Assembly (NCBI GenBank): GCA_002269645.1
Contig: NIVC01001485.1
Span: forward strand, 1-64,000
Direction: 5' to 3'
DNA: 64,000 nucleotides
Source of the DNA: Macrostomum lignano
Lineage: Eukaryota
The translations under genes and the position numbers were made by a program. Positions 1 through 53,979 of the stretch are shown one piece after another (position 1 is the first letter of the stretch; every line of letters starts with the position of its first letter). The notes under the pieces are model-generated. The model saw only the letters and a list, made by a program, of their open reading frames with translations. It did not search any database and was not told the origin of the DNA.

Positions 1-370
1 GCCCTGTACACTGAGCAACCGCCCCCCATGCGGGGGACAGAAGAGCCCCTGTAGCTGGGGACAGAGAGCAGCCCCTGTAGGCAGGAGGGGTAGTGCGTGG
101 AGAAGCCGCCATCCCCCTGTAGCAGGGGACAGATAACAGGCGACCCCTGTAGCAGTATGAGGTGGGGTACAAAGAGACACGGGGTGCTGGGACAGAGAGT
201 GCGTGGAGGCACCCTGCGCTGCCCTGGCATGTCGCAGCACGCGGCGTGGACAGAGAGGGAGTATGAATCACACGAGCGGGAGAGCCCCGGCCGGAGAGAG
301 CGGCCAGTCTGGAGGAGCGCGGTGAGCAGACCGGGGGTGATGAGAGAGCTCCCCCCAGGGCAGTAGAGGA
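1..370. repeat. Left terminal inverted repeat of element A (partial)
   Basis: 1..272 is the near-exact reverse complement of 9660..9931; degenerate similarity continues to ~370/9570. Confidence 0.9.
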
Positions 371-449: not shown

Positions 450-1079
450 TTATTTAGCATAAACTACGGGGTAGCGCCCCAACACATTAGCATAGTAGCG
501 AACAGATGCGTTCTGCAAGCAATTAACAATCAAGTAGGAGTAGGGCTCCCTAGTGGCGTCTTCGTACATTTGAACAAAACTTTTTGGGTTAGCGGGGACA
601 AGCTGCTTTGCAATATGGCGACTGTACTAACGTCCCGTACATTGCGGAACAATACAAGGTAGTTTGCGTTAAGGGATTGAGTGCGGTGCTCCTTGCCCTT
701 GGCAAACAGGTTTTGTACAAGGTACCAAAGCCGGAATCCCACATGGCTGACTTTGCGAGTGAAAAATGCGGTAAAAGCAGCGTTTTTTTCCATGGCTTGC
801 ATTTGATCATCGACAACGAGTAGAATATTCGGAGCGGGAACATAGGTTTCAGGGTTAAATGTAGACGAGCGAAAATTGACAGGGTACGGTAATTCAAACA
901 GTTCCGGGTCTGGATAGTGCCCAAACCAATCAACGCGAACAGGCTTAGGGTCCTGAAAAAACTCGTTTCGCAGCAATTCTTTAACAAGAGTTGTTTTTTC
1001 CGCTCTGGTTAACACCAGCAAAAATCGCCGAAGTATTTGGAGCAAACTTTAGAGCGTCAGGATCAATTGTTTGGTACAT
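450..1079 (-). pseudogene. Genome-packaging ATPase (A32/FtsK-like, Polinton type) with two apparent frameshifts
   Basis: ATG 1079 gives MYQTIDP...AGVNQSGK, then +1 shift at T6 run 994-999 to KTTLVKELL (Walker A); Walker B LLVVDD; QNLF motif; second shift near 610 restores DATREPYSYLIVN and stop at 450-452. Confidence 0.85.
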
Positions 1080-1113
1080 TTTCAGGGCGAGTTGACACTC
1101 CAAATATTAAAAA

Positions 1114-1551
1114 CTATTTTATTTGTAGAACATGTTTTCGAACCATCAAATCATTTTCAAGCAGATTGGTAGAGTAACATTCCCTTAAAATCTTTTCAAT
1201 CGACAACCCCTCTAAAAAGTGCTTTTCGGCCACAAAAATCACATGCGGCCCACACGCTACACTTAGAGGGTGTTGAACAGGGTGGCGATTCATAGCAACA
1301 GGTGAATGTACATGCTTCGAGATCCAAGCCGAGAGCAATTCCGGCACGGGTTCAATACACAGAGGGTCAAAAAATGTCACACTCTTATCATCGTGTAGGC
1401 AAATCAGTCCCCAGTGGGTGCCTGGCAGATTACCCGTGTCAAAATTAATTACATATGCAGCAGGGTAAACAGGTGCAGGAATTCTGTCGAGAGGGCAAAC
1501 GTGCACTTCCACAGGTAGTTTTAAACACTCCAAAATTTCCAACGTGTTCAT
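1114..1551 (-). CDS. Adenain-like (C5) capsid maturation cysteine protease
   Basis: Catalytic His GTHW, Asp FFDP, Gln/Cys QHPLSVACG in adenain order; 145 aa intact. Confidence 0.9.
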   Translation of the reverse strand: MNTLEILECLKLPVEVHVCPLDRIPAPVYPAAYVINFDTGNLPGTHWGLICLHDDKSVTFFDPLCIEPVPELLSAWISKHVHSPVAMNRHPVQHPLSVACGPHVIFVAEKHFLEGLSIEKILRECYSTNLLENDLMVRKHVLQIK

Positions 1552-2831
1552 ACGTAGTCCAGAATGGGCTGGCGGCCTCTAGTGATTTGCACCGCGTTGT
1601 CAAAGTAACCAAACACCAAAACGTTAATCCCGGCAGGTAGGGCTGCAGAAAACTTTATCTGTAGGGTCAGATTCCCTCTCTCGCGAGGCATGCTATGTCC
1701 ACCCAGTTCCATATCGGGCATTAGATTCCACGCAAATAAGCAGTAACCGGCGCGATAATCCGAATATGACAGGTCAATGTCCAAATCGCGATTCATTTTC
1801 CCTAGGCTCTTAAACAGCATGGCGTATTCGCGAGCATAGTTTTGGGCAGCGAACCTTGGAGTGAATGGTTGACCGCACAGACTGACACCGTCCTTGTACA
1901 GGGCCACACTGTCAGCCCCAAATGGCTCGAAATTGAACGGATTATGGGTAGCCACCCCGTTATATGCGGCACTATTTACCATTCCCATAATGACAAGTTT
2001 AGGCTTCTGCTCCGGGAAAATATTATTGATTGACACGTCGCGAACTCCTACAGCGACAGAGGTGTTGTGTACAACGAGGCGCTCGATGGGGTAGACTGCA
2101 TTCTGAGTTGCCAGCTGTTCTTCAATCTCCAAGGCCAGTTGGGGGTTAGCCTTTACCCGACGAACGTGTAATTTTGCACTTTGAAGAACCAACTTTGCAT
2201 CAACCCCTTCGGCGTGATTCTCTACAACGAATCCCGAATTTTGCAGAGTGAGCGTAACCACCATATCAGTGTAGGGTAGCAGCATACGATCGTTGGTGAC
2301 AAAAAAGTCGAGACTAAGAGGGCCATACAGGTGAAATGTTCGAGAACCGGCAGCCATCGCCTTGCGAGTTACAAAGCCAGGATTTCCAACCGCAGCCATT
2401 TGACCCCCAGCGTCTTTAGCGTAGCCCATCATCCGCAGTTGGTTAGACTTTGAATCAGACCCATAACTCAAGCATGTACGAATGTACGCCTTGTAGGCGT
2501 GGTTGTTGTTGCTAGACTCGATATGTGTACCATTTATGGAAAGAGACACGTTTTTGAACATGGTCTCCAAGAGGTAATTGATTGGCGCCACGTTTGAATC
2601 CGCCGCCAAATCGGCTCCATTAGCTCTTTTAATACAACCTTTAATCTCGAGATCAATGTCATTAAGATCGACAAACGTCTCGCCGCCCACAATTCTAAAC
2701 TCAACCACACTCGCATTTTCGACGCTGGCAACCGGGTGGATTTCTTCAGTAGTTGAACCTACAGCGGCAATCTGGTGGGCTCGAGGGGCAAAGAGCTCAA
2801 ACTCGGACTTTGTACACAGACACTCGGACAT
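1548..2831 (-). CDS. Double jelly-roll major capsid protein (Polinton PY/hexon-like)
   Basis: N-terminal ECLCTKSEFELF signature, 427 aa, NPFNF and terminal G.L.L...F...L...V.V.G.F strands typical of Polinton MCP; intact. Confidence 0.9.
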   Translation of the reverse strand: MSECLCTKSEFELFAPRAHQIAAVGSTTEEIHPVASVENASVVEFRIVGGETFVDLNDIDLEIKGCIKRANGADLAADSNVAPINYLLETMFKNVSLSINGTHIESSNNNHAYKAYIRTCLSYGSDSKSNQLRMMGYAKDAGGQMAAVGNPGFVTRKAMAAGSRTFHLYGPLSLDFFVTNDRMLLPYTDMVVTLTLQNSGFVVENHAEGVDAKLVLQSAKLHVRRVKANPQLALEIEEQLATQNAVYPIERLVVHNTSVAVGVRDVSINNIFPEQKPKLVIMGMVNSAAYNGVATHNPFNFEPFGADSVALYKDGVSLCGQPFTPRFAAQNYAREYAMLFKSLGKMNRDLDIDLSYSDYRAGYCLFAWNLMPDMELGGHSMPRERGNLTLQIKFSAALPAGINVLVFGYFDNAVQITRGRQPILDYV

Positions 2832-2860
2832 GTTTAGTAGACAGACTCGATTCGGCGAAT

Positions 2861-3205
2861 CTAATTGAAGCGGGGCTTTTTATTTATAGTGCTGAAAATG
2901 TCTGAATTGAGACGCTTCGGAGCCTTTTTTCTTCTTCGTCCGCTACCCCTTTGGGTAACCGTGTCTTTAAAGGCGTCCTTGGCAGCCTGAACAGAATTGC
3001 GCAGGACAGACTCCTTCAAATTGCCTCCTTGCTCGAGGCTATCGTTAACAGTAGTTGCTAGGGCTCTAGTACCATGACGGAGAACGTTTTTACCAAAACT
3101 CTTTAGAATTGGCAGCGCGAAGCGGGCAATGCTTCCAAACAAACCGTTGCCCCTCTGGGCGCCCGCGAAAACAGGCAAAGCTCCACCAATCAGAATAGAA
3201 GGCAT
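2861..3205 (-). CDS. Basic core protein (pVII-like Polinton protein)
   Basis: QRGNGLFGSIARFALPILK motif, basic RRRKK tail, LIGG/QRGNG candidate adenain sites. Confidence 0.7.
   Translation of the reverse strand: MPSILIGGALPVFAGAQRGNGLFGSIARFALPILKSFGKNVLRHGTRALATTVNDSLEQGGNLKESVLRNSVQAAKDAFKDTVTQRGSGRRRKKAPKRLNSDIFSTINKKPRFN
2881..2888 (-). promoter_or_regulatory. TATAAATA box upstream of MCP
   Basis: Exact TATAAATA on minus strand 50 nt before ATG 2831. Confidence 0.6.
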
Positions 3206-3245
3206 GATTAAGCACTAGGATATAGTTTACTGAGGCTGTGCTGTT

Positions 3246-3253
3246 TATTTATA
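3246..3253 (-). promoter_or_regulatory. TATAAATA box upstream of core protein
   Basis: Exact TATAAATA 41 nt before ATG 3205, overlapping penton stop. Confidence 0.6.
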
Positions 3254-4377
3254 GCTTCTTTTCGCGGATGTTAACGCTCAAGACGGTCTTGCCCCTCATT
3301 ACTTTTGTCATATCCCTGCCCATATCATCGTTAATTTGTACTTCAATAGTTTTGAATGGGTGCTTAACCAGCGGTAGATATGCCGGATTGACAAACTCGT
3401 AGTACTCGCGACCGCCCTGAACTTTGGGATCCATCGGTATAGCTCCCAACAGAGGAACTTTAACGTCTCCTACAATAACAGAATCGACTATGCTCGAATA
3501 GATGTACATTGTTTGTATTCCACCGGTTAATTCCATTGATGCGTTTGCGTAGAAATCCGATATACCGAAAAATGGGGTTGTATAATCATGCTCTGGGAAA
3601 CCAAGCACGCTGGTCAAGCGCCCCAGCCCAAACATGTAATCCACGAGCCAATGTAATAACACCTATTCGTAACTTCGCTGTATCCGAAAAAGTCCTTCTA
3701 GGTGCTGGAGCCGCTATGAGATCTTTGATCCGTTTCCAAATTAAATCGTTGAGTTCCTCCACCAATCTTTTAGGTGTACTATAGTATCCACCCTGCATAA
3801 AATAGATTTGATCAGACGCTGCGCTAGTAACTTGTCTTATTATTGGAGCGTGGTCCATTGACTGTACAGTCGGTTCCTCAACAACTGCGGTGATGGAGGC
3901 TGCACACCCCGCGTGTAATACGAGTTCAGTAGGTAGATCCTCATTAGACTCGAAGCCGGCGACTAGTTTAAACACCTTGGGTAGGGCATCCGGGAATTTG
4001 ATGCCGACGGTGGATTTTGAAGTATTCACAATCATAAAGGCGGTTGGGGATGTTCTTAAAAAGACAATTTTCTTATTATCCCCTTCAACGTATCGGATAC
4101 CGTTTAGAAAGCCGGAAATACATTCTTCAGGGGTTTTCAGACCCGCTGCGAGACAAAGGCTTGCAAACGACGAAGCCGTCAAGAGGCCCTCCTGTTCGCG
4201 AATGGTGATCGGTATAGATTTTTTGAAAGATTCAAATTCTTTGGTAAAGTAGATCCGTTCGAGGCAAACCTCATGATTCGGAAAGTGGAGAGTGTCCGGT
4301 AAATTAATAAAATAATGAGCCGGATTATTTTCGGGATAGTGCTCGGGGCACGCATTGCTAGGCAGAAAGAGATGCAT
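3249..4377 (-). pseudogene. Minor capsid protein (single jelly-roll penton, Polinton PX) with one apparent frameshift
   Basis: N-term MHLFLPSN..YPENNP.HYFINLP.TL; C-term MYIYSSIV..VIVGD.KVPLL..I...YLPL..TIEVQIND; ORFs 3586..4386 and 3249..3662 join by removing one G at TTTGGGCTG (~3628). Confidence 0.85.
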
Positions 4378-4389
4378 GGTAGCCACGCA

Positions 4390-5468
4390 TTAGTTATTAT
4401 TACGTTGACGTATATTTATAACTTCATTTACAGGTACAAATGAATTAAAAGTGTCGGGATAACCGCGCCAGCTAACGTAATGGTGCGCAACACCATTTAT
4501 TAACACGTTTCTACGCAAAACTTTATTGATTACAAAACGCTCGGGTCGGGTAGATTTGGACAGTTCATTGTAGTAAAACCGTCCCTCAATCACTTCACCA
4601 GACAAATCAGAAATACGATAAAAATGTGGGGGTCCAGGGCAAACTTTGGATATAATGTACACCTCCTCACTATACATGTCGTATGCCTCCTTGTCGAATG
4701 CCCTGCGAGATTTCGAAATTCTCACAAAATCCCCCTTTTTATATACGGGTCGTCTTTTTGCTGATCCGGGTAAAGCTTTTCCCACACACGCTTCTGATTG
4801 TGGAACCCTACACTTGACGGTTTCATCTCAATAGTAGAATGCGTCGTGTTGTTGTAATTGCCTATCAAATTAGGTAAGTAGTCAACCCAACGCCACGTGT
4901 TGTTGTGCTCAAAGTAGCGAGCCAGACGCTTTCGAAGAGTTCTAATCAGCCTCTCGGCCATGTTTGCCTTGTACACAGAGTTGGTGCTGTACATTTTAAC
5001 ATTATTGTCTTTTAGTATGCGGCGCATTCGCTGATTATAAAACTCGGTACCCCGATCCACGTGAAGGTAAAGGGGGCGGGCAGGGAAATCATTCGCCAAC
5101 ATTGACTCAAACGCTGCGGGGGTATCACTCTTTAGTTTAATTGCCCTACAAAAAGCCTGCTTACTAAGCACATCAATAATAACTAGTATATATTTATGTC
5201 CGTCATTCCAACGTTTGTATCGCGACATGTCCATCAAATCGGCTTGTAGAGTTTCCATGAATCCTCCCGACATTACTTTTCCCGTTTTAAATGTCCTGTT
5301 GACTCTCCGGTGACGGGTGTAACTCGGTTGGGTTTCTAGCCATTCCCTGGTTTGGCGTCTTGTCAGGTTTGGCGCCAGACGTTTGGCCTCCTGATAGACA
5401 CGGGCAGCATTTGAAAAAGCGGCGGCTCCTTGTTCGTAAACTCGACGAAGAGCGGTTAGAGCCCTCAT
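4390..5468 (-). pseudogene. Retroviral-type (rve) DDE integrase with C-terminal chromo-like domain, one apparent frameshift
   Basis: QADL / HVDRGTEF / MAERLIRTL catalytic triad; GD.VRISK..F.K; YVSWRGYPDTFNSFV chromo-like tail; ORFs 4722..5489 and 4390..4785 join near 4768. Confidence 0.9.
4413..4420 (-). promoter_or_regulatory. TATAAATA box upstream of penton
   Basis: Exact TATAAATA 36 nt before ATG 4377. Confidence 0.6.
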
Positions 5469-5601
5469 TGACAACAAGTGTGGATGCACAGCATGAATAG
5501 TTGCACGTAATGTCGGCTGGGGAGTTGTCTACACAAAGCTTTGACGCGGCTGCTGCTGCGCCCATGACCGCCGGGCGCGCGGTTATGTTTGGACTAGGGT
5601 T

Positions 5602-6228
5602 CTATTTATAAAGAGTCACGTATTTTTTCTTTTTCTCGGGTGGTCTTAGTTGGTAATCGTGATATTTACCCACCCCGGTACCTCGATCGACAAGTTTGGG
5701 CATAGCATTTACACCTTTGTTGCGCGTGGTCGTTAAATCGCGGGTGTCTGTCGCAATTGTGTGCTCATATTCATCGCGGTAATCGTCGGTACCAACCATA
5801 TGGTCAACCTTCTTTTCCTCCACAGGGAGCTGTTTCCGACCGAGCATAGACATTGGTATACGGGCCTTGTCTAGCAGAGCCCAGAAAGCGGTTGAATATT
5901 TCGGGTGATTATTAGTGCTGGTGGTGACGGCTTGTAGAAGATCAAAAACGTTGCTGCCACCCCAAGTTTCACCATCAAAAACGACTTCCCATGATTGGTT
6001 GTAATTTAGGCTGGGGTGCTTTTCTGTTAGTATATTCCATATACGTTGTTGCCTATCAGAAAATAGCTGCTTTGTCGTCTTTTGGGGTTTTACTTTAGCC
6101 AATTGGGTCTGTAGCTTTGCATTGTACTCTACAAGTTTTTCGTACTCCGATTTTGGGGCAATTTCTCGCGGAGTACCCTGTCTAAGCTGATTGAATTCCT
6201 CCTCGGGGACCACAACGTACTTGTCCAT
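5602..6228 (-). CDS. Conserved Polinton hypothetical protein
   Basis: MDKYVVVPE start and EVVFDGETWGGSNVFDLL...P...FWALLDKARIP segment resemble a recurrent uncharacterised Polinton/adintovirus gene. Confidence 0.6.
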   Translation of the reverse strand: MDKYVVVPEEEFNQLRQGTPREIAPKSEYEKLVEYNAKLQTQLAKVKPQKTTKQLFSDRQQRIWNILTEKHPSLNYNQSWEVVFDGETWGGSNVFDLLQAVTTSTNNHPKYSTAFWALLDKARIPMSMLGRKQLPVEEKKVDHMVGTDDYRDEYEHTIATDTRDLTTTRNKGVNAMPKLVDRGTGVGKYHDYQLRPPEKKKKYVTLYK

Positions 6229-6230
6229 TT

Positions 6231-6620
6231 TCAACGTCGTTGTCCTAGCAGACCACCAAACAGTCCAGTGATTAACGGTGCAGCAATCTTGGCGAGAATT
6301 GGTAGGAATCCTCCAACTTGAGGGTCCGATAGTATCATATTCTTCTTCCTATTTATAGACAGTTTTTTGTCGGCCATGTCATGCAGGGCTTCTCTATAAC
6401 GTTTCAACCTTGCAAACTGTCTAGGGGATAGATCGATATTGCCCTTGAGTACATTGTGGCTTAACTCGCACAGACACTGCATCAACTCATTATCGGCTCC
6501 CCTAATAATGGCCCTCCTTCGATGTGGTCGCGCGTCACCGAGCTCCTCTAGCTCGCGACGGCAAGAACAAAGACGAGAAATTCCGTTTGTCATTATTAAG
6601 GTGGTAAGCATTGCGTGCAT
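6231..6620 (-). CDS. Small basic virion protein with QxGGFLP amphipathic tail (pX/pVI-like)
   Basis: CLCELSHNVLKGNIDL and QVGGFLPILAKIAAPLITGLFGGL; GG/F and GG/L candidate adenain sites. Confidence 0.65.
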   Translation of the reverse strand: MHAMLTTLIMTNGISRLCSCRRELEELGDARPHRRRAIIRGADNELMQCLCELSHNVLKGNIDLSPRQFARLKRYREALHDMADKKLSINRKKNMILSDPQVGGFLPILAKIAAPLITGLFGGLLGQRR

Positions 6621-6638
6621 ACATGTGCATATTTTGTT

Positions 6639-6646
6639 TATTTATA
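6639..6646 (-). promoter_or_regulatory. TATAAATA box upstream of pX-like gene
   Basis: Exact TATAAATA 19-46 nt before candidate ATGs 6620/6611/6593. Confidence 0.55.
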
Positions 6647-6658
6647 AGCAAAGCATAA

Positions 6659-7138
6659 TTAGAGTTGCAGAATAGCAGTCACGTGGTCGTACATTTTACA
6701 CAGTTCGTCATAGTTTCGTATTCCTAGGAACACTAACCGACCATTCTTTCCGCACAGCAGGCACTTGGCCTTGCGGAATGGGGACTTTATTACAAGCCCA
6801 TTGAATACCTCACTCTCCCACTCAACCCAGCGCGAGCTCGAGTTGGCAAGGCGGAAAAAGTTTGGCTTAACATTAACTTCTGCACGATAAGTACCGGTAG
6901 TGATAACAACAGAGTTTGGTTTACATTGAGCAAAAAGACGCAGCACATCGTTGGTTGATTGGCAACCAAAAACAATGGCAGATAATGAACGTTTGAAAAA
7001 GTTTATTGTACACTTTCCGATCCTCAGGTTGTACAATGCCCGGGGTCTATGAAACGTTCTAGCGCGCGCCCAGTCCAAGTTCGGTAGGTGGTTCCACCTT
7101 GCGCAAAACACCCTGTTTACGCACACGACGTTCTGCAA
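6659..7138 (-). CDS. Divergent TATA-binding-protein (TBP)-like protein; no ATG in frame
   Basis: LQNVV start vs TBP IQNIV; WESEVFNGLVIK..CLLCGKNGRLVFLG..ELCKMYDHVTAIL aligns by eye with TBP YEPELFPGLIYR..LLIFVSGKVVLTG..EIYEAFENIYPIL; ~160 aa matches TBP core size. Confidence 0.65.
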   Translation of the reverse strand: MQNVVCVNRVFCARWNHLPNLDWARARTFHRPRALYNLRIGKCTINFFKRSLSAIVFGCQSTNDVLRLFAQCKPNSVVITTGTYRAEVNVKPNFFRLANSSSRWVEWESEVFNGLVIKSPFRKAKCLLCGKNGRLVFLGIRNYDELCKMYDHVTAILQL

Positions 7139-7739
7139 GCGGTTTTTTCGGTTGCTTTTGTTTCCGCTCAGCTCCACCAGCTCCGCGCTTGCGTCCTACC
7201 TTGATTTTTAACGGTGGAATCCAGTAGCAGCGGTCAAACGCCTGCTTGGGAGCTTCTATGAATTGCAGTTGTTGAATTTTCGGCACCGCGGTTAGAACCG
7301 AGTCGTGAATCACCGCCGTGTCTAGGGCGAACAGTACTCTATAGTAGCCCGTCTTGTTCTTGTAGTCGGTGCACAACTTGCCGCTCTTGTCGTACATTTT
7401 AAAGTCGTGAGCCAATCCGAATGCAGCGCTGTCGCAGCCAAAAGTGGGGTTGTACCCCAATAGCGCCATTCCTTGGATAGAGAGCTGGTGACACACGGAA
7501 TTGAACGCTTCTGGTATGCAGCTCTCCAAGTGCTTTTGGGAAAGAATGATGAATTCGCGGCCTTCATTGTCGGTTCTCACACCCTTGACAATCAGTACGG
7601 GCGTCGCATTGGCAAGATAGAGAGGGCCCTGTTCGTCGTACTCAATGTCGTACGTCTCGGTTCCGTTGTAGCTTGGACCTCTCGACTTGAGAGAGAATAG
7701 GTCGATCCTAACACTATTGTAGTCTTGAACGGTATCCAT
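7059..7739 (-). CDS. Hypothetical protein, possibly OB-fold ssDNA-binding protein
   Basis: ATG 7739 (MDTVQDY) with TATATAAG 44 nt upstream; beta-rich C-half GYYRVLFALD..IQQLQF recalls phage/NCLDV SSBs; assignment is weak. Confidence 0.4.
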   Translation of the reverse strand: MDTVQDYNSVRIDLFSLKSRGPSYNGTETYDIEYDEQGPLYLANATPVLIVKGVRTDNEGREFIILSQKHLESCIPEAFNSVCHQLSIQGMALLGYNPTFGCDSAAFGLAHDFKMYDKSGKLCTDYKNKTGYYRVLFALDTAVIHDSVLTAVPKIQQLQFIEAPKQAFDRCYWIPPLKIKVGRKRGAGGAERKQKQPKKPLAERRVRKQGVLRKVEPPTELGLGAR

Positions 7740-7782
7740 GTTGCTGCTGCTGCTGAGAGTGGGTCTCGCTCCTGAGCGCCTC

Positions 7783-7790
7783 CTTATATA
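7783..7790 (-). promoter_or_regulatory. TATATAAG box upstream of SSB-like gene
   Basis: 44 nt before ATG 7739. Confidence 0.5.
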
Positions 7791-7827
7791 CCCTTGGCGC
7801 GGAGGGTGGGGTGGCTGGGCGTTTTTG

Positions 7828-8343
7828 TTATAGTCCTTCTTTAACGACACTTTCCGGTGTTGGAAATCCGGAAAAAATAAACCTTTTGTTTCGATCTTCT
7901 GGTCGAGGGGTTTGAGGCGTGTCGTGAATGCAGCTGCAGTGAGGGTTGATAGTCAACTTCGCTAGCACTGGTCTACTGTGTTTAGGTCGCCAAATCCTTT
8001 GGTGTTCCGTCCACGAGGGAGCAATCGGCTGGTGATTCCGGTACCGTATTTTCTCACGATGATCCTCTTGTAATATTGGGGCAATTATCTGCTCCATTCT
8101 TTGAAGATTGGCTTTGAAATGCATCTTGTCTCTAAAGTAGTAGTCAATTCGGGCATCTGTATATTCTTGGGTGCTGTAAGGCCCTTGCCCAATTTCGTCT
8201 ACCTCGACATTAAAGGTGACTAATCGTTCGGGAATTGGTTTGCCGTGACAAATGCATAACCAGTCTGTGGACTTTTTCAGGGTCTCGTACTCTGCCCTTT
8301 CTTTGCTCGATAAAAGCGGGTAGTCTCGAGAAATCCAGCTCAT
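7828..8343 (-). CDS. Hypothetical protein (171 aa)
   Basis: ATG start overlapping upstream stop; fits the compact gene packing; no recognisable motif. Confidence 0.55.
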   Translation of the reverse strand: MSWISRDYPLLSSKERAEYETLKKSTDWLCICHGKPIPERLVTFNVEVDEIGQGPYSTQEYTDARIDYYFRDKMHFKANLQRMEQIIAPILQEDHREKIRYRNHQPIAPSWTEHQRIWRPKHSRPVLAKLTINPHCSCIHDTPQTPRPEDRNKRFIFSGFPTPESVVKEGL

Positions 8344-8693
8344 TCCTCTGACTCGTCAGATTCGTCGAGAAAGAAATAGTGGAAGAAATTGTCGACTCTA
8401 TTCTTTTCAACTGCACAAAGTATTTTGTCTGACAGGTGAAATTCGCAGTCTCCTTTTACGTACAGGCGCTTCCCGTCGATAACTTTGATAGATGCGCCGC
8501 CTCCGAGATCGTAATCTGTGCAGCTAGTGTCCAGAAATTTCATTCGATGCCATTGTGCTCGACTAAACACGGCTCCTGGACAGCTACAGTTTTGACAGTG
8601 GATGCGGAAACGCGGCTTGTTTGGGTCCCAATATCCCACTTCCAGCACTGCGTTGTCAACGTGGGTGTACACTATTTCCGATTGCCAGTACAT
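8340..8693 (-). CDS. Small protein, possibly PC4-like ssDNA-binding/coactivator fold
   Basis: PGAVFSRAQWHRMK resembles PC4 GISL..EQW..LK; acidic tail DESDESEE; TATAAATA 32 nt upstream. Confidence 0.4.
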   Translation of the reverse strand: MYWQSEIVYTHVDNAVLEVGYWDPNKPRFRIHCQNCSCPGAVFSRAQWHRMKFLDTSCTDYDLGGGASIKVIDGKRLYVKGDCEFHLSDKILCAVEKNRVDNFFHYFFLDESDESEE

Positions 8694-8724
8694 TTCGATA
8701 TTGTTGAGAAATACCAATTTTATT

Positions 8725-8732
8725 TATTTATA
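8725..8732 (-). promoter_or_regulatory. TATAAATA box upstream of PC4-like gene
   Basis: Exact TATAAATA 32 nt before ATG 8693, overlapping Fic stop. Confidence 0.55.
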
Positions 8733-9507
8733 GGCTGCCGTCTGAACAGATTTCCAACCATTCCCTCCACTGTAGAACGGTTCTCTCAATTGATAAAAGT
8801 AAATACGCCGCTAGGAGCCCCCGGTTGCTGCTGCGCGCTTCGTAAAGACAGTTGAGATATGTGTCTCTATTTGCATACGCAAATGATACGGGTTCTGGCA
8901 GAATCCGGTTGATCAACTTTGATAATAACAACCTAGCAGTTCTACCATTGCCGTCGCTAAATGGGTGTATGGTGAGAAACTTTTCTAGGAAATATGCTCC
9001 TGTCACTACTGCATCACGCAAGATTTGTGGCTCTTTTATGTCTCTAGTTAATTTTACCAGCTGCCGTTCAATATTTTCTGGGGCACTGTAATACATACTC
9101 GCGCCTGCTGGCTTGGCGTGCTTAATTCTATACGATCCTGCATTCGGGAGCAGTCCTCTACACACGCGTGTGTGAACTTGTCTAACAAACTCTGTGTCAA
9201 TTAACCCCCTCGTGTCATTGAGGTGTTTTGCCGCACTCCATAGATTGGCTGTGACCATACAGGACCCGGTTTTTATCGCTTCTTCTGCTTCCTCCCAAGT
9301 CAACGCCACCTCTCTCTCCTCAATGTTTACTTCAGTTACGAATGCCAGCCGGGCTAGATACGTGAATTCTAAGCGCTCCTTTGCGGTCAATCCCTCGATT
9401 CTTTTCCTAGTGTCTGATAACAATCTTTCAATGAGGGGTAATCTGGCGCGCACGCTCTCGTTGCTGAAATAGGGGTTATCAGTTATACCCTCTTCCATGT
9501 TCTCCAT
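8728..9507 (-). CDS. Fic-domain protein (AMPylase-type)
   Basis: Complete canonical motif HPFSDGNGRTAR; IKHAKPAG flap region; EVNIEERE..LTWEE..EAIKTG resembles the N-terminal inhibitory helix of FICD-type proteins. Confidence 0.9.
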   Translation of the reverse strand: MENMEEGITDNPYFSNESVRARLPLIERLLSDTRKRIEGLTAKERLEFTYLARLAFVTEVNIEEREVALTWEEAEEAIKTGSCMVTANLWSAAKHLNDTRGLIDTEFVRQVHTRVCRGLLPNAGSYRIKHAKPAGASMYYSAPENIERQLVKLTRDIKEPQILRDAVVTGAYFLEKFLTIHPFSDGNGRTARLLLSKLINRILPEPVSFAYANRDTYLNCLYEARSSNRGLLAAYLLLSIERTVLQWREWLEICSDGSL

Positions 9508-9569
9508 ACAGAGGGTTTTGTACACTGCTTCTATTTATGGTTGCATTAACACGTTGCTCGCGGCCTGTC

Positions 9570-10251
9570 TGTCCCTCTGCAGCCTGGGGGGGCTCTCTAT
9601 CACTCACCGCCGGTCTGTCCCTCTACCACCCCGGCCTGGGGAAGCTCTCTGTCCCTCCGTGTGACTCACACTCCCTCTCTGTCCACGCCGCGTGCTGCGA
9701 CATGCCGGGGCAGCGCAGGGTGCCTCCACGCACTCTCTGTCCCAGCACCCCGTGTCTCTTTGTACCCCACCTCATACTGCTACAGGGGTCGCCTGTTATC
9801 TGTCCCCTGCTACAGGGGGATGGCGGCTCTCCACGCACTACCCCTCCTGCTACAGGGGCTGCTCTCTGTCCCCAGCTACAGGGCTGCTCTCTGTCCCCCG
9901 CATGGGGGGCCGGTTGCTCAGTGTACAGGGCTGCGTCAGCATCGGGGGTTTCCTTCCTACACTAACCGCGTGCACACGACATTGGTGGGAGGGGCGGGAA
10001 TCCCCCCGCCGGATGTACACCCGAGGGAGGCCCATGCGCTGAAGGTACACTCGCTGGACGCCCAGCCGGCCGGATGTACACTCGCGGGAGGCCCACCCCG
10101 CTGGAGGTACACTCGCTGGACACCCACCCCGCTGGAGGTACACCCCGGGGGAGGTGGTACACCCCGAGGGAGCACCTTGCCGCGGTGCTAGAGGCCGACA
10201 TCAGCCCGACGGACCTTCGCAAAATCGAGCCATTCGGAATCCCTTAGTAGT
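9570..10251. repeat. Right terminal inverted repeat of element A
   Basis: Mirror of 1..370 up to 9931; continues through GC-rich GTACAC repeats to terminus ...CCCTTAGTAGT (10251). Confidence 0.85.
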
Positions 10252-10469
10252 AGTGCTAATTTGCAAAGGGTATTGCTAATCTGGGTGAGCAGCGCTAATC
10301 GGGGAGAGCAGTGCTAATCTGACGCATATAATAAAATAATAAATATGTAAGGGAATTAAATTGAACTTGCAAGTTGCAGAAACATTTTAAATGGTTTCGA
10401 TTATCCAGAAGCAATATAGCCATAAGCAAAGATTAGTGCAATGTACAAAACAGTACTGGTGAACGATGA

Positions 10470-10920
10470 CTAAACTGCTGGTGAAGCATTGCTAAACTGC
10501 ATTGCTAAACTGCTGGTGAAGCATTGCTAAACTGCTGGTGAAGCATTTCTAAACTGCATTGCTAAACTGCATTGCTAAACTGCTGGTGAAGCATTGCTAA
10601 ACTGCTGGTGAAGCATTGCTAAACTGCTGGTGAAGCATTGCTAAACTGCATTGCTAAACTGCTGGTGAAGCATTGCTAAACTGCTGGTGAAGCATTTCTA
10701 AACTGCATTGCTAAACTGCATTGCTAAACTGCATTGCTAAATTGCTGGTGAAGCATTTCTAGACTGCATTGCTAAACTGCTGGTGAAGCATTTCTAAACT
10801 GCATTGCTAAACTGCTGGTGAAGCATTGCTAAACTGCTGGTGAAGCATTGCTAAACTGCATTGCTAAACTGCATTGCTAAACTGCATTGCTAAACTGCTG
10901 GTGAAGCATTGCTAAACTGC
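10470..10920. repeat. Minisatellite of interleaved 13-bp (GCATTGCTAAACT) and 22-bp (GCATTGCTAAACTGCTGGTGAA) units
   Basis: Directly visible tandem units; only a short version in copy 2 (~15110-15185). Confidence 0.9.
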
Positions 10921-11899
10921 AGAAAGCTATAGTGAAATATAGTTTTTTTTATTAAAAACTTCTTTTAAAGAGAAGAAAACGCAAAGGCAAGAAAAAACGA
11001 ACAAGAATCATCATGTCAATTATAAAAGAAGCGCCCTGTCGAAAGTAAAAGTCTCATTGGGAATTGCTAAGACTGTTAAGACTGCTAAGACTATTGCTAC
11101 GAGCATAATGCTGGTATGGCAAATTGCTGTGATATATCAATACTCATCGGAGGATTTATAAGATCTCAAGGCACAAGGGGAATTGCTATAATTGTCATTC
11201 TGGGGAGAATTGCTTTGATTTCAAGGTTCATTTGTGAAATTGCAGAAATAAATAGTTGAAATGCAAGTGCCAAGATATCAAAAGGTATCAAAAGTCACTC
11301 AATTTTCAGGCTCATGGGGAAATTACTAACATTTCCAAAGCTCATTGGGGAATTGCTGAAATTCTGCTGCAGGTTAAGGGTTAGGCTTAGGGTTCAATTA
11401 TAGAGCGATAGTCGTGTCAATCATTAATAATCCATCGAGGAATTGCTAAGATTAAATGCTCTTGGGGCGTATTATTTAAATGCTTTGGCTCTACGGGGAA
11501 TTACTGACAGGTCAAGGCTTCCGGTGAAATTTAGATTTAAAAGCTTATGAGGAAGTTACTTTAATGCTGAGGCTCAAGGCTCATTGTCGAAATTGCTAAC
11601 ATGCCAAGATTTTCTTATGGGTTAGGGTTAGAGGCTTAGGGTCAGTTTTGGTTCAATCATAGATTAACCGCTGTCAACCATCAATTAAAGACTTGCTAAG
11701 ATATCTAAGCTCATCGGGGAATAGCTGAGTTGTCAAGGCTTATAAGGGGATTGCTGAGTTATCAAGGCTTATAAGGGGATTGCTGAATTCTTGGGAGAGG
11801 GGAGTTGGGTTGTTGGGATGTCAAGGCTAATTACTGCGCTGGAAGAATTGCATAGATGTCGAGACTGGAGTTTAATTGCTGCGATGTCGAGGCTTAATG

Positions 11900-12225
11900 G
11901 GGTTATTCCTGAGATGTCAAGGCTTACTGGGGAATTTCTGAGATGTTAAGGCTTACTGGGGAAATGCTGAGATCTCAAGACTTACTGGGAAAAGTTTTCA
12001 GATCTCAGAGCTTACGGGGGGAATTGCTGAGATCTCAAGGCTTACTGGGGGAATTACTGGGATGTCAAGGCTTACTGGGGGGATTGCTGAGATGTCAAGG
12101 CTTACTGGGGAAATGCTGAGATCTCAAGGCTTACTGGGGGAATTGCTGATATGTCAAGGCTAACTGGGGGAATTGCTGAGATGTCAAGGCTTACGGGGGG
12201 AATTGCTGAGATGTCAAGGCTCATG
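11900..12225. repeat. 30-bp minisatellite (GGAATTGCTGAGATGTCAAGGCTTACTGGG)
   Basis: About 10 tandem units. Confidence 0.9.
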
Positions 12226-13701
12226 GACGATGGCTGAATTGTTGGGGGGGTGTTAGGTTGTTAGGCGATTGTCAGATAGTCAGGTAGTACGGCTCAAGTA
12301 GCTCATGTAATTTAGATAATGAAAAGTACACACAAGTGATGCTGCTTTCTGCTAATAGGAAATACCAGCGCATTTATTATAGGTTTGATCCTTTGATTTA
12401 GGCTAATAAAGAGAGAGGGTCTAAGACCGTCAAGGATTTGCATATTGAGCTCCTGTTGTGGATCAGAATATGCCCCGGCCAGTGACGATATTTACTAAGA
12501 GTTTGTGCTTGAAAGGATAAGCACTATTTTCTGCTTTAGAAAGGGTTTTGAGCTGATGAAGGAAACTTTTTGGCTAATGAAAGTTCTGATTCATTATAAT
12601 TTATTTTTTGCCACAATCAGAAAAGTTAATTTTTTATTAATGGAAATTAACATTTTGAATAATTATAGTAAGGTTAATCTTGTGCCAAAATAAAATCCAA
12701 TTGGTGTCATTTTCAAGGCTCCCCAGCGGGGGGCTAAATGGCTAGTCTAAATATACTAAATCTTCTAATCTAAATATACTAAATCTCTAAGCTTTGTATG
12801 TTTGAATGCTTGCTTGTCCATAACGCTCTAGAGATTGCAATTCTTCACCGATTTTGATCGCGTTTTCGCCAAAACATTCAAAATTGTCTGGAAAGAAGAC
12901 AGTTAAAATTTCTTTAATCTGCTTCAATGCTAAAGGGATTAAATATTCGAAAAACATGCTTTTTTGCAAAGGTCAAGCAGCTCTTTCGACTTGAAATGCG
13001 CTGTAAGAATGCTAGAGAAAAAACCGACTGACTGAATTCTGATTTTGATAAAGATTGCATCACAACAAGTTGAAAACACTGTGCCAAGTTGAAAGACAGA
13101 AATTGCGTAACCATATTGCTAACTTTAAATGAGACTGATGCTGACTGCCTGAGTATTTGATTATGTCATAGCTGCTTCGTGTGACTTTCACTCGAAGAGA
13201 ATTTGTGTTAGTATTCGTGTAACGCTCTAGAGATCGAACCGATTGACCAATTTTAATCGCGTTTTCACGAAAAGATTTGTAATTATCTGGAAAGAAGACA
13301 GTTAAAATTTCTTTAATTGGCTTTAATGCTAAAGGTATTAAATATTCGAAAAACGAGTTTTCCCAATGCTTTTAATGGTAGGGCAAACTTTGAATTCTTG
13401 ATTGGACTGGCTGAATTCCAATTCCAATTATGATTGCGCCATAACTTTTCTCTCTCCACTGTGTAAGCTTCAATACTGGTTGCAGTGTGCAAGGAGAAAA
13501 ATGCTCAGTGGCTGCGTGTGTACATTCTGACCCTGGCTGACTGGCGGACTCCATAGAAAATTGCTATTTATAGATTTCACTCAATCAACTGTGCATTGGC
13601 TCCGCCTGCACGCCTACACACTGAGCAGCCTATCACTGCTATGTATTTTAACTGCAGTTCTGAAGCATATATGGCTGATTTTGTTGTCCTCCCATCAATA
13701 G

Positions 13702-48396: not shown

Positions 48397-51300
48397 TTAT
48401 TTATAACCATAAGGCCTGCTGCAGGCCCCGTACACGCGCTTCGTCAGGACGCGCTGAAACGTCTTGTCCATATTGATTGTGTGTATGGTACAAGACGCCT
48501 TGTCGCGCCTAAACTGAAGCTGCGGCAGCTGCAGGGAGCCGCCGTGTAGTAGGGCACTGCGCAATTCATCGCTGCGCTCCCGAATCTCCGGAGTCAGGCG
48601 GATGCCCTTGCACTTCAGGACCTGACTCCGGGCACCGGCCGCATCCTCGACAATGTAAGTGTAGAGCTTGGGCCCTCCACTTACAAAGTCGGTCATCCGG
48701 CTGCCTGCGGGCACCTCATCGGTCCACATTCCGAGGCTCGTGCCATGGGGCGGCTCCCATTGGCCCTCGGAATGCCGGTAAACGACCCTGTGTGGGAGAG
48801 AAAACGAGATAATTGCTAACTATTTACATGTAATCAATTCTAAAATAATTTTCCCAATGCAATACTTACGAGTCAGTGTCGCAGTAAATGGCCCGTTCGC
48901 CGAGCCCCTCCAATGCCTCATACAGGCGCAGCCGGGCCTGCGTGGTCGTAAAGACTCCGATTGGCACATTAGAGTACCGGAACGGCCGCTGATTAAAATA
49001 GCGGTGCCGGTACTCTAGCAGCATAAACTCGCTGCCAATCGGTTCGCAGGCCTTGACTTTGAGGTTGGGGTCGGTCAGCCGGGCGAGCCAGTCCTCGTAG
49101 CTGGATACAATTTCTGTCGATGTCAGGTCATCACGCTGACAAAATTTGCCCCAGAGCCTGTGTGTTGTGAAAAGAAGTGCTACTGTTAGTAGAAGAAGAA
49201 AATCATTTAAAATACAAAAATTTATGAATACTTACGAATTCAAAAAGATTTTCGCTACAAAGCGAAGTCCTGGGTTGGGCTCGACCTTGTCCAGCGTGAC
49301 GCCCTCCTTGGCGTAAAAATCGGCAATGTAGGCGGCCTTGTCTTCATCCGACATGCCGGGGGAACCGCTCGACTCAGCCTTCAGCTTGAGAAAGGTGCTG
49401 ACATAGTCACTGAACAGACCGGTCCGCTTCTCTGTCCAGTAGGCCAGCGCGTGCACCGCCTGCAGCCGGTAGCCCAACTGGAAGGCCTTCCGCAGCTCCG
49501 GCGTTGCCCAGGTACCAGTCAGTGCCCGCTGCTGGTCAGAGTGGTCGCAGCACTCGCCGCACTGCTGCTCCATACAGGTGCGGCAAAGCCCAAAAAAGAG
49601 CTTCTTTTGCACCCTGTAGGGCAGCAGCGGAATGTGCAAATCTGACGGCGGCAGCACTGTCACCTTGGCAATGCCAAAGTAGCTAGCCAGCGCGTCAGAA
49701 TCGAGCACTTGCGGCGTCGGATGTTGCACCGGGTGGCCAATCGGGTATGGGTCTTTCGACTGCACCGTCGGGTACAGAGAGACCTGCCAGTTGAAATAAA
49801 GCATTATTTTTTTTTCATAAACTGTATTTTTTGCAAAATATTCTACTATATTAGTAGTATCGCTACTCACCACATCCCGATATTTGAGAGTCTCAGTCTC
49901 GCTGGCCACAGCATGCGGGATAAAGCACTCTACGCGGCCGCCGTAGAGCGCATCCTCCATCTTGAGCGGAGCGCGCAGATGTGCAGTTGCGGCGATAAAG
50001 TCGGCCTGCGACGCCAATACAGTGTCGTACTCATGCTCCCAAATGACTCGAACACTGTAATTGTGCCGCTCCAACTCGCGAGTGAACCACTCAGTCTCGT
50101 GGCGAATATGGCTCAGAGGCTGCCGTTTGAGCGGGTGAACGACATCCTGATCGGGCATACACTGCTCGCAGCCATGGTAGAAACAGCCATGAAACTGCAA
50201 AACAGTGTTGCTGGCCTCATCGAAGCCGTCCACCTTGCGGCCGAGAATGACAGCCTCGCCGCCAGTCGAGTCGCAGGTTCGCAGCCGCCCGCCAAATTCG
50301 GTGGCATTCAAATAGGCCAGCCACTTGCGCGCCTTGAACGACTGCTGGTCGGCCTGCCGGGCAATCACGCCGACCGAGTTGGGCTCCATAAACCGGGTGG
50401 TGAAAACGGCCATTGCCAAACTGGCAATCGTATTGGCCTGTACAAATGGTTCCAGGCCGTCGCAAATTTCACCAATTATTGCCCTGTACTTGATGCAGCC
50501 CTCGCGAAGCAGGACTGTGTCGCTCAAACAATAATCGAGATACTCCCGATTAAAGTTGAACAACTCGCCCTGTCGCGAGGCTAGCCAAGCACAGATTGAG
50601 TCATAGTCCTTGTTTGCTTTGCCGCCATAATATTCAATAGCCGGGTAGGGGCCAACGTAGTTCCAATTAGCCGGCTTGTTAAACTCGTGGGGAAAGGTCC
50701 CCTTGGCCAGCTTTGTGTCAGCGAGCCCCAGCGCTTTGGGGAATTGCGCAAGCGGGATTGGTATGAAATTTAACGAATCTTTGAATACCAATTTATCCAC
50801 CGTCATGCTCATTAGCCGGCTGCCCTGGAACAGTACTTGTGGCCGCTTCTTGGCCAGGCCGTTGAGTAGAGCGCCAAGCAGTAGGAACGAATCGTAGCCT
50901 GATGCGTTGTGCGCTACAACAATGGCGCCGCCTCGGAAAGCTGTGCTTAGCCAGGTGAAAAACGCATTCAGCGAGGCCGGGCCCACAGCCACAAAATCGG
51001 CCATTTGGCAGGCGCAGTCTGAGTGGCTGACGCAATTGGAGAATTCCTCCCCCAGATCGCGGCCAGTCAGACAATTGGCAGTGCTATGCAGGCCATTGCA
51101 GAGGCGGCAAGTCTCGCGCGGAAACGCCCGGCCGGAGCAGGTCTCGCAGCACGTGACGGCAGTCACCAGGTGCACGTGATGCTGCTTCTCCTCGTCCGTG
51201 TATGTTTCCGTATCGTAGAACACGTACGGCATAGTCGAAGCTTTCACTTTGGGAGCCTTGACGAAGCACAAATGCGAGCCGGCCTCGTCGTACTGTTTAC

Positions 51301-53979
51301 ACAGTGGGCATTTGATGTGGCCGCACTTGTGCTCCGGCTCCCTTTGCCCAACTTTCATCTCCTCCAAATATCCGCATTTGGGGCAGACTCGGACAGAGTC
51401 GCAGCGAGACCTGCCGGCCCGGTTTTTCCGGCGGTGGTTCTCAAAGCACTGCTGATTGTAGCACTTGAGGCCACAATCAGGGCAGCGCTTGTAGTCGCAC
51501 CGCAGGCTCTTGCAATTGGCGCCGGGCACTTTACACTGAGGGCAGGTGTTGGCGCACTTGTGCCCTGCAGAGTTGCAATCATACGGCTGCTGGCAGCGGT
51601 CGCAATAGTAACGGGCTCCGAAAAATGGCGGCACCTTGCAAACAGCGTTAAAGTGTTCGCCAATTAGGTGCAAATTCAGCACTTCGCAGCCGGGCAGGGC
51701 GTACACACACGTGTTGCCTTCATCAGCACTGTATACCCGGACGCCGAAATCCCGGCCAGGCGACTGGGCGTTCAGGACCGCGAGCAGTTGGGGGAGCACG
51801 TCAACCCCGAAAGGCCCGGCCTGTGCAATGGTTGATAAAGACTAAAACATTTGTATATTAATAAAAATGCAAATTAAAATGTGCAAGAACATTTTTACTC
51901 ACCGAATACAATTTGGCTGCAATTTGTAACTCCCCAGTAAGCTTCTTCTGCATTGGGGAGTCAGCCTTGATGGTCCGCCAAGTCCGCTTAGAAATTGTCT
52001 TGGCCTCCAGGTCGGCAAAGGCCTTGGCGACAATCAGCGCCCGAATGAGGCAACGCTTGTCGCTGTTGGCGATGACAGCATAATTATAGCCCATAGCATG
52101 GCGTGCCTGGATGTGGCGCTCCGCAGCATCTAAGCTGCCGCAGCCGCCCCGCGGGACCCAGGCCTTGAGTAAAAACAATTTAAAGTTGTTGCCCAAGACG
52201 CTGGAGTCCGACTGCAGAACCTTGTTGATATGTTTAAATATCAGCTCTGCAGTGAAGCGGCTGCGGCGGACGGGCGGGACATTGATGGCGAGCATCATAT
52301 TGTCCGCCGTCAGCTTAGATGCGACGAAATCGTTGACATTCAGGTCGGCGCAGAGTGCCGAAATTACTTTCGCGAATGTGTCGCGAATATCGGTGAGTGC
52401 TGTGAAAGACACTTCATACTCGTAGCCCTTGGCTCTAAATTTTGGCAGGGCTTTCGCCCCGCCAAGACGCGCAATGAAGCCTGAAAAAAATGGAGGGTTT
52501 GAAATTAGAATTGCGAGAGGCGGCGGCAGGTTTATGACTCATAAAATCAACTCCTTACCATCGCCTTCGACAGTGTCGGGCTGGGGCGGGGGTTGAAATT
52601 GAGCCAAATCTGCAATAAAAATGCGCATGGTGACTAAAATTCTGACCGCTTGGAATTTTACAACTGTCAAAAATTTTTGATTGATTGCCTGCAGCAGCAG
52701 CAATTTTATCGCCCCACCCCAAGCAACAAAAATCGGTGAGTTGTAAAAACCCCCAACTCGGCACGTTCCGACACGTAGCAACAAAAGAAATGTGGGGTTG
52801 ATTGACCCCCGCTTCGAATTTTAGGCTGTCAAAAATGTTTGATTGATGACCCTGATAACACAGATCCTGCCGCAGCAGCCATTGTAAAATTTAAGAAAAC
52901 CCCTATCAGCACGTGCCTCCATTGTGCCTCCTTGACACCTAGCAACAATACCGCGCGGCCGCTTTTGGATTTTAAAGCTGTCTGATTAATAACCCTCACT
53001 GTAGCAGCCAAGTTTTATTGCTGCCAAAACCCCATACAATTGCAGCGATGATTACATCATCATGCCCAAAAATCGGGGGTTGATTTTATCACTGCGCCGC
53101 TAGAATACCTGCCGCCGTGGTGATTACATCATCATGCTGAGCCCAAAAATCGGGGGTTGATTTTTATCACTGCCGCCTGCCCGCCCCCCGCTGAGTCACG
53201 CGCGCGCTGCAGGATTGCTGTTTTTGCTTCTCTAGTCATATAACCCCTGAAATTTTATGACTATCCCCTACAGGCATTATCTGGCTATACTGCTGCTGCT
53301 GCTGATATTCTCAAAAACTCTGTTATTTCAACAGGTCTGAATTTGAGAAATCCAACTTCAACATCTATGTCAAGAGGAAATTCCGAAATTTTAACCAAAA
53401 ATGAATGCTAAAGATGAAAAGCAGTGGTTTTCAAAGAAAGCCCATATTTCAACAAGCGAAAAGTTTGCAAATCACACTAATGCTAAAGCTGAAAAGCGCA
53501 GTTATACAACCCTATTTTTCTAATTTTAGATTTTGCAAATGCTAAAGATGAAAATAATTGAGGCTAATGTATAAAAAGCAGTTTTTCAGAGAGTCCTATT
53601 ATTTCAATAAGCTGAATTTACAGTTTGGAAAGCAACTCTGAATGCAAAGGGTGAAAACCAGTTTTACAGTGGGGCCTCCTATTATTTCAATAAGCCTTAT
53701 TTTGAGTTTGCGAAAGCCAAATGAATGCCAAAGATGAAAAAGCAGTTTTTACAGAGAACAGCCCTATATTATTCAATAATCCCGAATTTGGAGTTTCGTA
53801 AAAAGATAAAGATGAAAAAGAAATTTTTACACAGACTTGCAAGACTCACCTAGCTGTCGTCCCCTCTTTGCGGGCGGAGGCTGATGCTGCTGCTGTGGTT
53901 GCTGCTGCTGCCTGGAGGGGCCAGCCTGCCCCCACAAGGCTGAAATGGCGGCTTCAGCGGCTGGGCGTTTTGATGCCAT
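48397..53979 (-). CDS. Protein-primed family B DNA polymerase, 7 exons (53979-53850, 52609-52559, 52480-51903, 51820-49871, 49783-49236, 49157-48870, 48787-48397), 1311 aa predicted
   Basis: All introns GT-AG with consistent phase; Exo I FYDTET, Exo II AHNASGYD, Exo III YCLSD; motifs YRDV/VSLYP, KIFLNS/LWGKF, YCDTDS/V; VSR-like VDG..LQFHGCFYHGC insert; N-terminal DKRCLIRAL..EHF; exon 1 (Kozak GCCACAATGG) less certain. Confidence 0.92.

Follow-up and report, generated by a model that had tools for sequence, protein, structure and literature searches.

A TATA-binding protein-like gene with a candidate promoter box in a polymerase-less Polinton-type element of Macrostomum lignano

A Polinton-type element that bears capsid-position genes and lacks a DNA polymerase gene was found to encode the saddle fold of the TATA-binding protein (TBP). 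It lies in the window analysed here, the whole stretch of 64,000 nucleotides from Macrostomum lignano (contig NIVC01001485.1, positions 1 to 64,000). Whether the gene product works as an element-encoded TBP variant and promoter-selectivity factor is, in our judgement, evenly balanced; such a variant would probably switch on the element's own capsid genes. The original prediction, made from the letters alone, was right about the TBP homology and the Polinton-type context; the codon at 7138 is TTG, and the missing ATG with its splice signals and the missing DNA polymerase had been overlooked.

The TBP-like gene and its fold

6659..7138, minus strand: TBP-like two-repeat saddle, putative exon 2 starting at 7132; no ATG

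The gene reads as 159 codons from 7138 to 6659, inside a stop-to-stop frame of 178 codons (6659-7195) whose sole methionine lies 11 residues before the C-terminal end. Pfam PF00352 (TBP) was matched at E 9.5e-5, with 22.6 bits against a cut-off of 22.9, over the second repeat only (residues 107-177). The protein of a second element subfamily (B, below) gave no match in the Pfam TBP search, and P0003, a relative from outside the genome, exceeded the cut-off with 24.6 bits. TBPs made up 18 of the 19 matches in a phmmer search of the PDB (best E 0.0034), and TBP clusters 28 of 30 in an Atlas search, the latter at a recognition score below the tool's mark.

A structural model (AF2) was built from an eight-row family alignment, with canonical TBP in none of the rows. 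It has a pLDDT of 82 and ten strands, ordered as in TBP. Foldseek against the PDB returned 44 matches at E<=1e-3, all of those listed being TBP (best 3.9e-9, TM 0.72), with the first non-TBP fold at 1.7e-2. The five best structures in VIA-align wide (saddle residues 1-159) were also TBP, at Z 11.7-14.1, followed by 7.0. A BFVD search placed NCLDV TBPs first, from E 5.6e-8 onwards, and herpesvirus UL87/BcRF1 models were also matched. The two-repeat sequence of ~160 residues that had been aligned by eye with TBP, with WESEVFNGL present in frame, is borne out by the AF2 saddle and by Foldseek and VIA, the AlphaFold and Foldseek comparison with TBP structures being the check proposed at the outset. 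The modelling confirms that 6659-7138 encodes a full two-repeat TBP saddle and settles the fold.

As a reference for DNA contacts we used the 16 yeast TBP positions in Table 1 of PMC12529657 (host residues are counted one lower than those of yeast). The saddle has the yeast residue at six of them (N69, V71, F116, F190, L205 and V213), and the altered positions include F99 to R, L114 to N, T124 to F, N159 to T, V161 to T, P191 to N, F207 to C and T215 to L. Two of the four intercalating phenylalanines are kept (F116 and F190), F99 having become R31 and F207 C129, with repeat 1 less certainly aligned; the intercalating-Phe-equivalent position claimed originally is there, as F112, the equivalent of F190. 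The central pair N69/V71 is kept as N8 and V10, and N159/V161 is replaced by T81 and T83. With six of 16 contacts identical and two of four phenylalanines lost, DNA binding by the saddle is not assured.

Residues E108, E110, F112 and F48 are invariant in all eight rows of the family alignment, as are the concave-face changes T83, N46, K125, C126 and N113. The acidic C-terminal stirrup, which binds TFIIB (yeast E186/E188), is kept as E108 and E110. The AF2 model lacks the first helix of repeat 1, and helix 2, the long basic helix that in TBP is a surface for TFIIA, Brf1 and Mot1, is shortened to 7 residues (62-68) from about 19. The saddle has a basic net charge (24 K+R against 9 D+E). Its predicted complex with the host TFIIB exon product (172 aa, without the start of repeat 1) scored 0.23 against a mark of 0.34.

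Copies, selection and relatives

Searching the worm's own genome with the TBP-like gene gave 91 matches, 15 of them full length and identical, and a second element subfamily, B, which is ~76% identical in this gene to that of the window, A. Between the TBP cores of A and B, dN/dS was 0.063-0.073 in three gap-free comparisons (two frame-broken comparisons were left out), with synonymous sites near saturation; on these sequence comparisons, the gene is under purifying selection between the subfamilies. Five relatives of the protein were found outside, all singletons, P0001-3 at 60-65% identity and P0004-5 at 28-29%. IMG/VR searched with A3, A2, host TBP and MCP yielded no relatives, and metagenome locus L063 was rejected as a bacterial chance match. 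Identity is 19% to host TBP, 14% to host TRF2/TLF and 7-17% to NCLDV TBPs, and hhalign of A1 against A2 gave Prob 13 and E 0.002. The host has canonical TBP at three loci (L031) and a TRF2/TLF-like gene at three (L037:733-1926).

An element with capsid-position genes and no polymerase

The TBP-bearing element runs from before position 1 to 10251 (~10.4 kb); two-ended subfamily A copies measure 10.2-10.5 kb, and each of seven two-ended copies has a perfect 6-bp target site duplication (TSD), as judged by eye.

1..284: left terminal inverted repeat (TIR), cut by the contig start
530..1078, minus strand: packaging-ATPase-position gene, in two frames here; P-loop, synteny, 36-38% identity to the family-C gene
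1114..1551, minus strand: cysteine protease gene, Pfam C48 E 0.06; family-C counterpart Peptidase_C5 E 4e-5
1548..2831, minus strand: major-capsid-position gene, 427 aa; size, synteny, 27-31% identity to the family-C gene
3249..4377, minus strand: penton-position gene, in two frames in the window copy; putative label
4390..5468, minus strand: rve integrase (Pfam rve E 7.5e-10) whose end resembles a chromodomain (Chromo E 0.08); two frames in the window copy
8728..9507, minus strand: Fic-domain gene, Pfam Fic E 6.8e-14; next to the TIR
9574..10251: right TIR, ~680 bp, ending ...AGTAGT, with a variable 25-nt tip

The capsid-module labels (major capsid protein [MCP], penton, ATPase and protease) follow synteny and 26-39% identity to genes of family C, the complete Polintons described below; the major-capsid-position gene had no Pfam match. 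A pPolB gene was absent from the element in the window copy, C110, C296 and L158-L160. For ORF117, a PC4-like match reached E 0.06 only. The Fic gene had no tblastn match in loci L045-L062, and among the A, B and C copies checked it occurs in subfamily A only. At the tip (10227-10251) and in L098-L121, bases 7-25 are mosaic and hypervariable, the two ends mostly agreeing and the element bodies being about 99% identical. The end of ORF129 (6231-6340) encodes an amphipathic Gly/Leu-rich peptide, which may be a membrane-lytic virion peptide.

The missing start codon and a putative intron

7059..7739, minus strand: ORF226, putative exon 1; residues 1-180 conserved between A and B (74-75% identity), basic tail not
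7133..7199, minus strand: putative 67-nt phase-0 intron, AAG/GTAGG ... CTTGCAG/AAC; predicted; also codes for the ORF226 basic tail

Start and splice signals were surveyed in 50 loci, the 30 best of the 91 and 20 hand-picked. An in-frame ATG upstream of the saddle is absent in 48 of them, the two exceptions being a copy one base shorter in an A run and a degraded copy. The acceptor CTTGCAG lies where the saddle begins in 46 of 50 loci and the donor ATCAAG/GTAGG where ORF226 conservation stops in 47 of 50, both at a codon boundary; the distance separating them is 66-67 nt in subfamily A and 196-200 nt in B. In subfamily A, no other YTNCAG occurs from the ORF226 ATG to the TBP stop, and no other AG/GTR within the ORF226 head; just these two sites are shared with B. 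Identity between A and B falls from 9/12 before the donor to 2/12 immediately after it, and conservation starts about 36 nt 5' of the acceptor. The identity of the junction codons is modestly unusual (P 0.19 for the donor, 0.055 for the acceptor), and runs of 14-26 identical bases also occur elsewhere in the ORF226 and TBP-like genes. Host splice motifs are GT[GA]AG for donors, CAG for acceptors and [T/C]TNCAG for trans-acceptors (PMC8629364); the putative donor, unlike the first of these, has G at +4.

These signals suggest that the TBP-like ORF is exon 2 of ORF226, by predicted cis-splicing. None of the listed datasets that contain the sequence is recorded as RNA. A spliced joint at 7133-7199 was not found in four Logan contig sets (three presumed RNA, depth about 0-55 and flat), and unspliced contigs cross the interval in the presumed-RNA sets, which are possibly DNA. 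A weak search for a longer, fused ORF226-TBP homologue found none among 165 candidates. ORF226 itself had no match in Pfam, PHROGs or the Atlas and none in the PDB below E 1.5, and its AF2 model has a pLDDT of 33. A programmed frameshift was rejected: the interval differs in length between the subfamilies, which displaces the frame by +1 in A and in most cases by +2 in B, and one fixed frameshift does not suit both. It is reasonably likely that cis-splicing of the 67-nt intron would join the 180-residue ORF226 head to the saddle, the unspliced RNA giving ORF226 with its basic tail.

Given the conserved donor and acceptor and the host motifs, cis-splicing to ORF226 is our first reading and spliced-leader (SL) trans-splicing our second. 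The same role would then be served from another start, an SL ending in AUG being joined at the CAG acceptor to give a stand-alone, in-frame saddle of 158 residues, or translation starting directly at TTG 7138; we regard this as a plausible but minority possibility. The 20-nt SL end (PMC8629364) occurs 62 times in the genome (G000) and not at all in the control, the putative acceptor matches the trans-acceptor motif [T/C]TNCAG (PMC8629364) and stands at a codon boundary, the AUG of a flatworm SL is able to start ORFs (PMC9851317), and none of the five outside relatives extends N-terminal of position 1. However, a conserved upstream donor normally speaks for cis-splicing (PMC8629364), none of the 12 of 15 loose ends listed for the presumed-RNA contigs was SL-like, and a direct TTG start would have a pyrimidine at -3 in both subfamilies. 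Separately, at L122:1501 and L123:1501, SL-end matches are not followed by GT and are probably retrocopies of trans-spliced mRNAs.

Complete Polintons of the same genome

The genome also holds family C, complete Polintons with Pfam matches to DNA_pol_B_2, PC4 and TBP (TBP E 1.3e-22). Their TBP gene has an ATG; its product shares 26-28% identity with host TBP and 18-22% with the TBP of the window element, and the named relatives of this product are proteins of Macrostomum lignano. Among the matches listed, a scored family-C pPolB occurs on 42 contigs, 35 of which have a TBP match within 6 kb, so by sequence match a TBP gene in Polintons of this genome is not a one-off. Family-C ends apparently start AGTAGT; an assignment of ACTAC...GATTTTG ends to this family was dropped, being based on a single end (L060:5274). 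The family-C locus L051:2036-8452 has CTTAAGAA boxes together with genes for PC4 and for a TBP of more canonical type, the TBP gene overlapping an upstream ORF by about 110 codons and converging with pPolB. An ORF at L055:18-785, some 8 kb away from a TBP fragment of family C, resembles a parvovirus-type phospholipase A2 domain.

The origin of these TBPs did not resolve in the proposed phylogenetic comparison with other TBPs, the trees being unstable across LG+G4, LG+C10 and C10. Under LG+G4, A/B and P0001-5 group with family C (support 97.6/85); under LG+C10 fast, the same group has a support of 36; and an unfinished C10 run places A/B and P0001-5 beside archaeal TBP. The arrangement 'C with host' was not rejected by the AU test (p 0.16, long branches). 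L134 was left out of the C10 trees, and L127, L133, L139 and L140 are in none. As A/B and family C both have N159T, V161T and a Lys-Cys pair at 203-204, the sequences suggest a common Polinton TBP ancestor, with long-branch attraction possible.

Candidate promoter boxes and the proposed role of the TBP variant

2881..2889, minus strand: YTATAAATA box before the MCP-position gene
3246..3254, minus strand: YTATAAATA box before ORF114
4413..4421, minus strand: YTATAAATA box before the penton-position gene, within integrase coding sequence
5603..5611, minus strand: YTATAAATA box before ORF92/integrase
6350..6358, minus strand: YTATAAATA box within ORF129, 121 nt before ORF208
6639..6647, minus strand: YTATAAATA box right after the TBP-like stop, before ORF129; also AATAAA
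7783..7791, minus strand: GTATATAAG box, 43 nt 5' of the ORF226 ATG; putative early-type TATA
8725..8733, minus strand: YTATAAATA box before ORF117; doubles as Fic stop and as AATAAA

Each of the seven YTATAAATA boxes of the window element is on the coding strand, and three lie within coding sequence; B copies have them at corresponding places, four of the seven double as AATAAA, and the element's TIRs have none. In five A/B copies we counted 5-7 YTATAAATA boxes per copy and no CTTAAGAA (shuffles <=0.13 per block). All 11 family-C blocks have 2-6 CTTAAGAA boxes (shuffles <=0.3), and YTATAAATA is absent from ten of them and present once in the remaining one. Nearly all boxes of either kind in this census of A/B and C lie on the coding strand, and family-C boxes stand 34-66 nt 5' of six start codons, the TBP gene among them. 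The GTATATAAG box is found 5' of ORF226 in A/B, and related boxes 5' of PC4 in family C. The motifs were chosen after looking and two TBP lineages were compared; the pairing of box and TBP by lineage is a correlation only, over two lineages.

Of the two roles raised by the original prediction, a transcription factor of the element's own is favoured, and a dominant-negative mimic less so, because each Polinton lineage here has its own box and its own TBP variant. Such lineage-specific pairs fit a promoter-selectivity factor, as in the herpesvirus vTBP/TATT system, better than a decoy. Host TBP and Pol II would read the canonical GTATATAAG box 5' of ORF226. It is then slightly favoured that the protein binds the YTATAAATA boxes of the capsid-module, integrase and accessory genes and recruits TFIIB and Pol II through the stirrup residues E108 and E110, the shortened repeat-1 helices allowing it to escape host TBP regulators.

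As a dominant-negative decoy, the saddle would titrate host TFIIB or TBP regulators without binding DNA, leaving the boxes to host TBP. Being a canonical TATA box, YTATAAATA should be readable by host TBP, and ten of the 16 DNA-contact positions are changed while the TFIIB-stirrup glutamates are invariant. We nevertheless consider a decoy unlikely, as the box that accompanies family C's own TBP variant, CTTAAGAA, is non-canonical, the changes on the concave face are invariant in 8/8 rows, and the net charge of the saddle is still basic. A replication or packaging role appears more unlikely still. Here the ORF226-TBP product would act on termini or single-stranded DNA and replace functions of a polymerase-less segment, which draws on the lack of pPolB, on the TBP-like folds of Rep_trans initiators (VIA Z 7.0 and 5.5) and on ORF226 having no known family; however, TBP is much the closer in both sequence and fold (20% identity, Z 14), a TBP is also carried by complete pPolB Polintons, and the TIRs are without YTATAAATA. 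That the gene is a decaying piece of captured host TBP on a non-autonomous element, as the lack of an ATG, several broken genes in the window copy and the lack of RNA support (in low-depth presumed-RNA contigs) might indicate, is very improbable, being largely refuted by a dN/dS of 0.06-0.07 with synonymous sites near saturation; the 15 identical copies and the outside relatives at 28-65% identity also speak against it.

A pPolB-only element as candidate second segment

44228..62496: E1-type TIR element with pPolB only and a 6-bp TSD; a candidate partner segment for subfamily B but not for the A copy of the window
48397..52538, minus strand: pPolB gene, spread over several frames in this E1 copy; positions 49235-51358 match Pfam DNA_pol_B_2 (E 4e-28)

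The E1 element has TIRs of several kb with 250-bp tandem repeats, and by tblastn its pPolB is unrelated to that of family C. Elements with pPolB only are multicopy (56 matches) and fall into subtypes E1 and E2. Capsid, integrase, ATPase and TBP genes had no match in any of the eight E loci examined or in the window E1 copy; a PC4-like match was present in three of four E2 loci, and the long ORFs seen in two E1 copies belong to inserted RT elements. When the first 25 nt are compared, E2 ends show 1-2 differences from A and 14 from B, and E1 ends 4-5 from B and 10-12 from A (3 E2, 5 E1, 10 A and 3 B ends compared); at bases 26-50, E2 ends are closer to B than to A. Ends of the A pool flank further E2 polymerase loci (C493, C558 and C1158 among them), as seen by eye in the first 100 of 190 pattern matches.

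Complementary gene sets, TSDs on an element without an integrase and co-varying tips point to two segments that share a single polymerase and a single integrase, and the sequences suggest that the TBP element and the pPolB-only element form a two-segment Polinton. It is fairly likely that the TBP element would be copied by the pPolB of capsid-less E2 and lend integrase and capsid in exchange. Ordinary parasitism of one element on another would also fit the shared termini.

Elsewhere in the window, a Gypsy-type RT-RNaseH-integrase ORF (62502-63998) flanks the pPolB element, 19139-24661 holds an intronless gene for a 1840-aa adhesion GPCR (LamG x4, GAIN, GPS, 7tm_2), and 10450-17700 and 27640-35150 are satellite arrays with units of 22, 30, 17, 21, 14 and 33 nt.

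Comparison with known systems

Like KSHV ORF24, EBV BcRF1 and HCMV UL87, the window element combines a viral TBP fold with a specific TATA variant before structural genes and encodes no RNA polymerase; should the splice model be right, it also shares an extra N-terminal domain with the herpesvirus vTBPs. In the herpesvirus scheme, the viral TBP comes from an early gene and recognises a box specific to the virus (PMC7498053, PMC12529657). In contrast to the window saddle, which has two of the phenylalanines and a TFIIB stirrup and sits in a 10-kb integrated element, KSHV ORF24 has 752 aa and all four phenylalanines, binds Pol II directly and is modelled as TFIIB-incompatible (PMC12529657, PMC7498053). 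Partner activators as in the herpesvirus vTBP system were not found in the window element.

The NCLDV TBPs (HaV01, EsV-1-53, ASFV B263R-like, mimivirids) are also divergent viral TBP folds and gave the best BFVD matches, but they belong to large viruses and show 7-17% identity with no tree support for kinship. Most NCLDVs with a TBP have their own RNA polymerase. Host TBP and TRF2/TLF share the fold, at 19% and 14% identity; the window saddle differs in its missing helix 1 and shortened helix 2 of repeat 1, and TRF2, too, has lost intercalating phenylalanines. Bidnaviruses have parvovirus-like virions and are not known to make TSDs by an integrase. They resemble the proposed pair in being bipartite with a Polinton-related PolB (PMC8502044), but both parts here are integrated dsDNA elements.

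With Polintons/Mavericks (adintoviruses) and family C, the window element shares TIRs, a 6-bp TSD, rve integrase, protease, ATPase and capsid-position genes, and with family C a TBP gene adjoining an ORF208 homologue. It differs from Polintons/Mavericks in lacking pPolB, in its length of 10.4 kb against 15-20 kb (PMC4028283) and in its matched pPolB-only partner, from family C in its termini (ACTACT against apparent AGTAGT) and from the intronless vertebrate Mavericks (PMC8097293) in its probable intron. The label 'TBP' stands in the Fig. 5 legend on MELD viruses of Starrett 2021 (PMC8502044), the only mention of TBP in Polinton-like viruses in the literature searched. That literature gave no account of a Polinton promoter box, and a word check of two papers gave no mention of bipartite Polintons; PLVs without replication genes are already described. 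The literature base also included 10.1101/697771, PMC10748475, 10.64898/2026.06.19.733378 and 10.1101/2022.07.28.501842.

Taken together, we tentatively propose, as somewhat less than an even chance, that two segments, one with capsid, integrase and spliced ORF226-TBP genes and one with pPolB and a PC4-like gene, co-replicate, swap 25-nt tips and integrate apart, and that the altered-specificity TBP and box of each lineage (YTATAAATA or CTTAAGAA) run its late genes, as an independent, minimal counterpart of herpesvirus vTBP/TATT. The saddles of A and C would be natural altered-specificity TBPs, and two such variants with two boxes in one genome make late-promoter control open to binding and reporter assays. 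If true, a polymerase-less, still transposing capsid segment matched to one that carries only the polymerase would represent a segmented version of a group whose members are defined by having both, and surveys that demand pPolB and capsid on one contig would overlook such systems.
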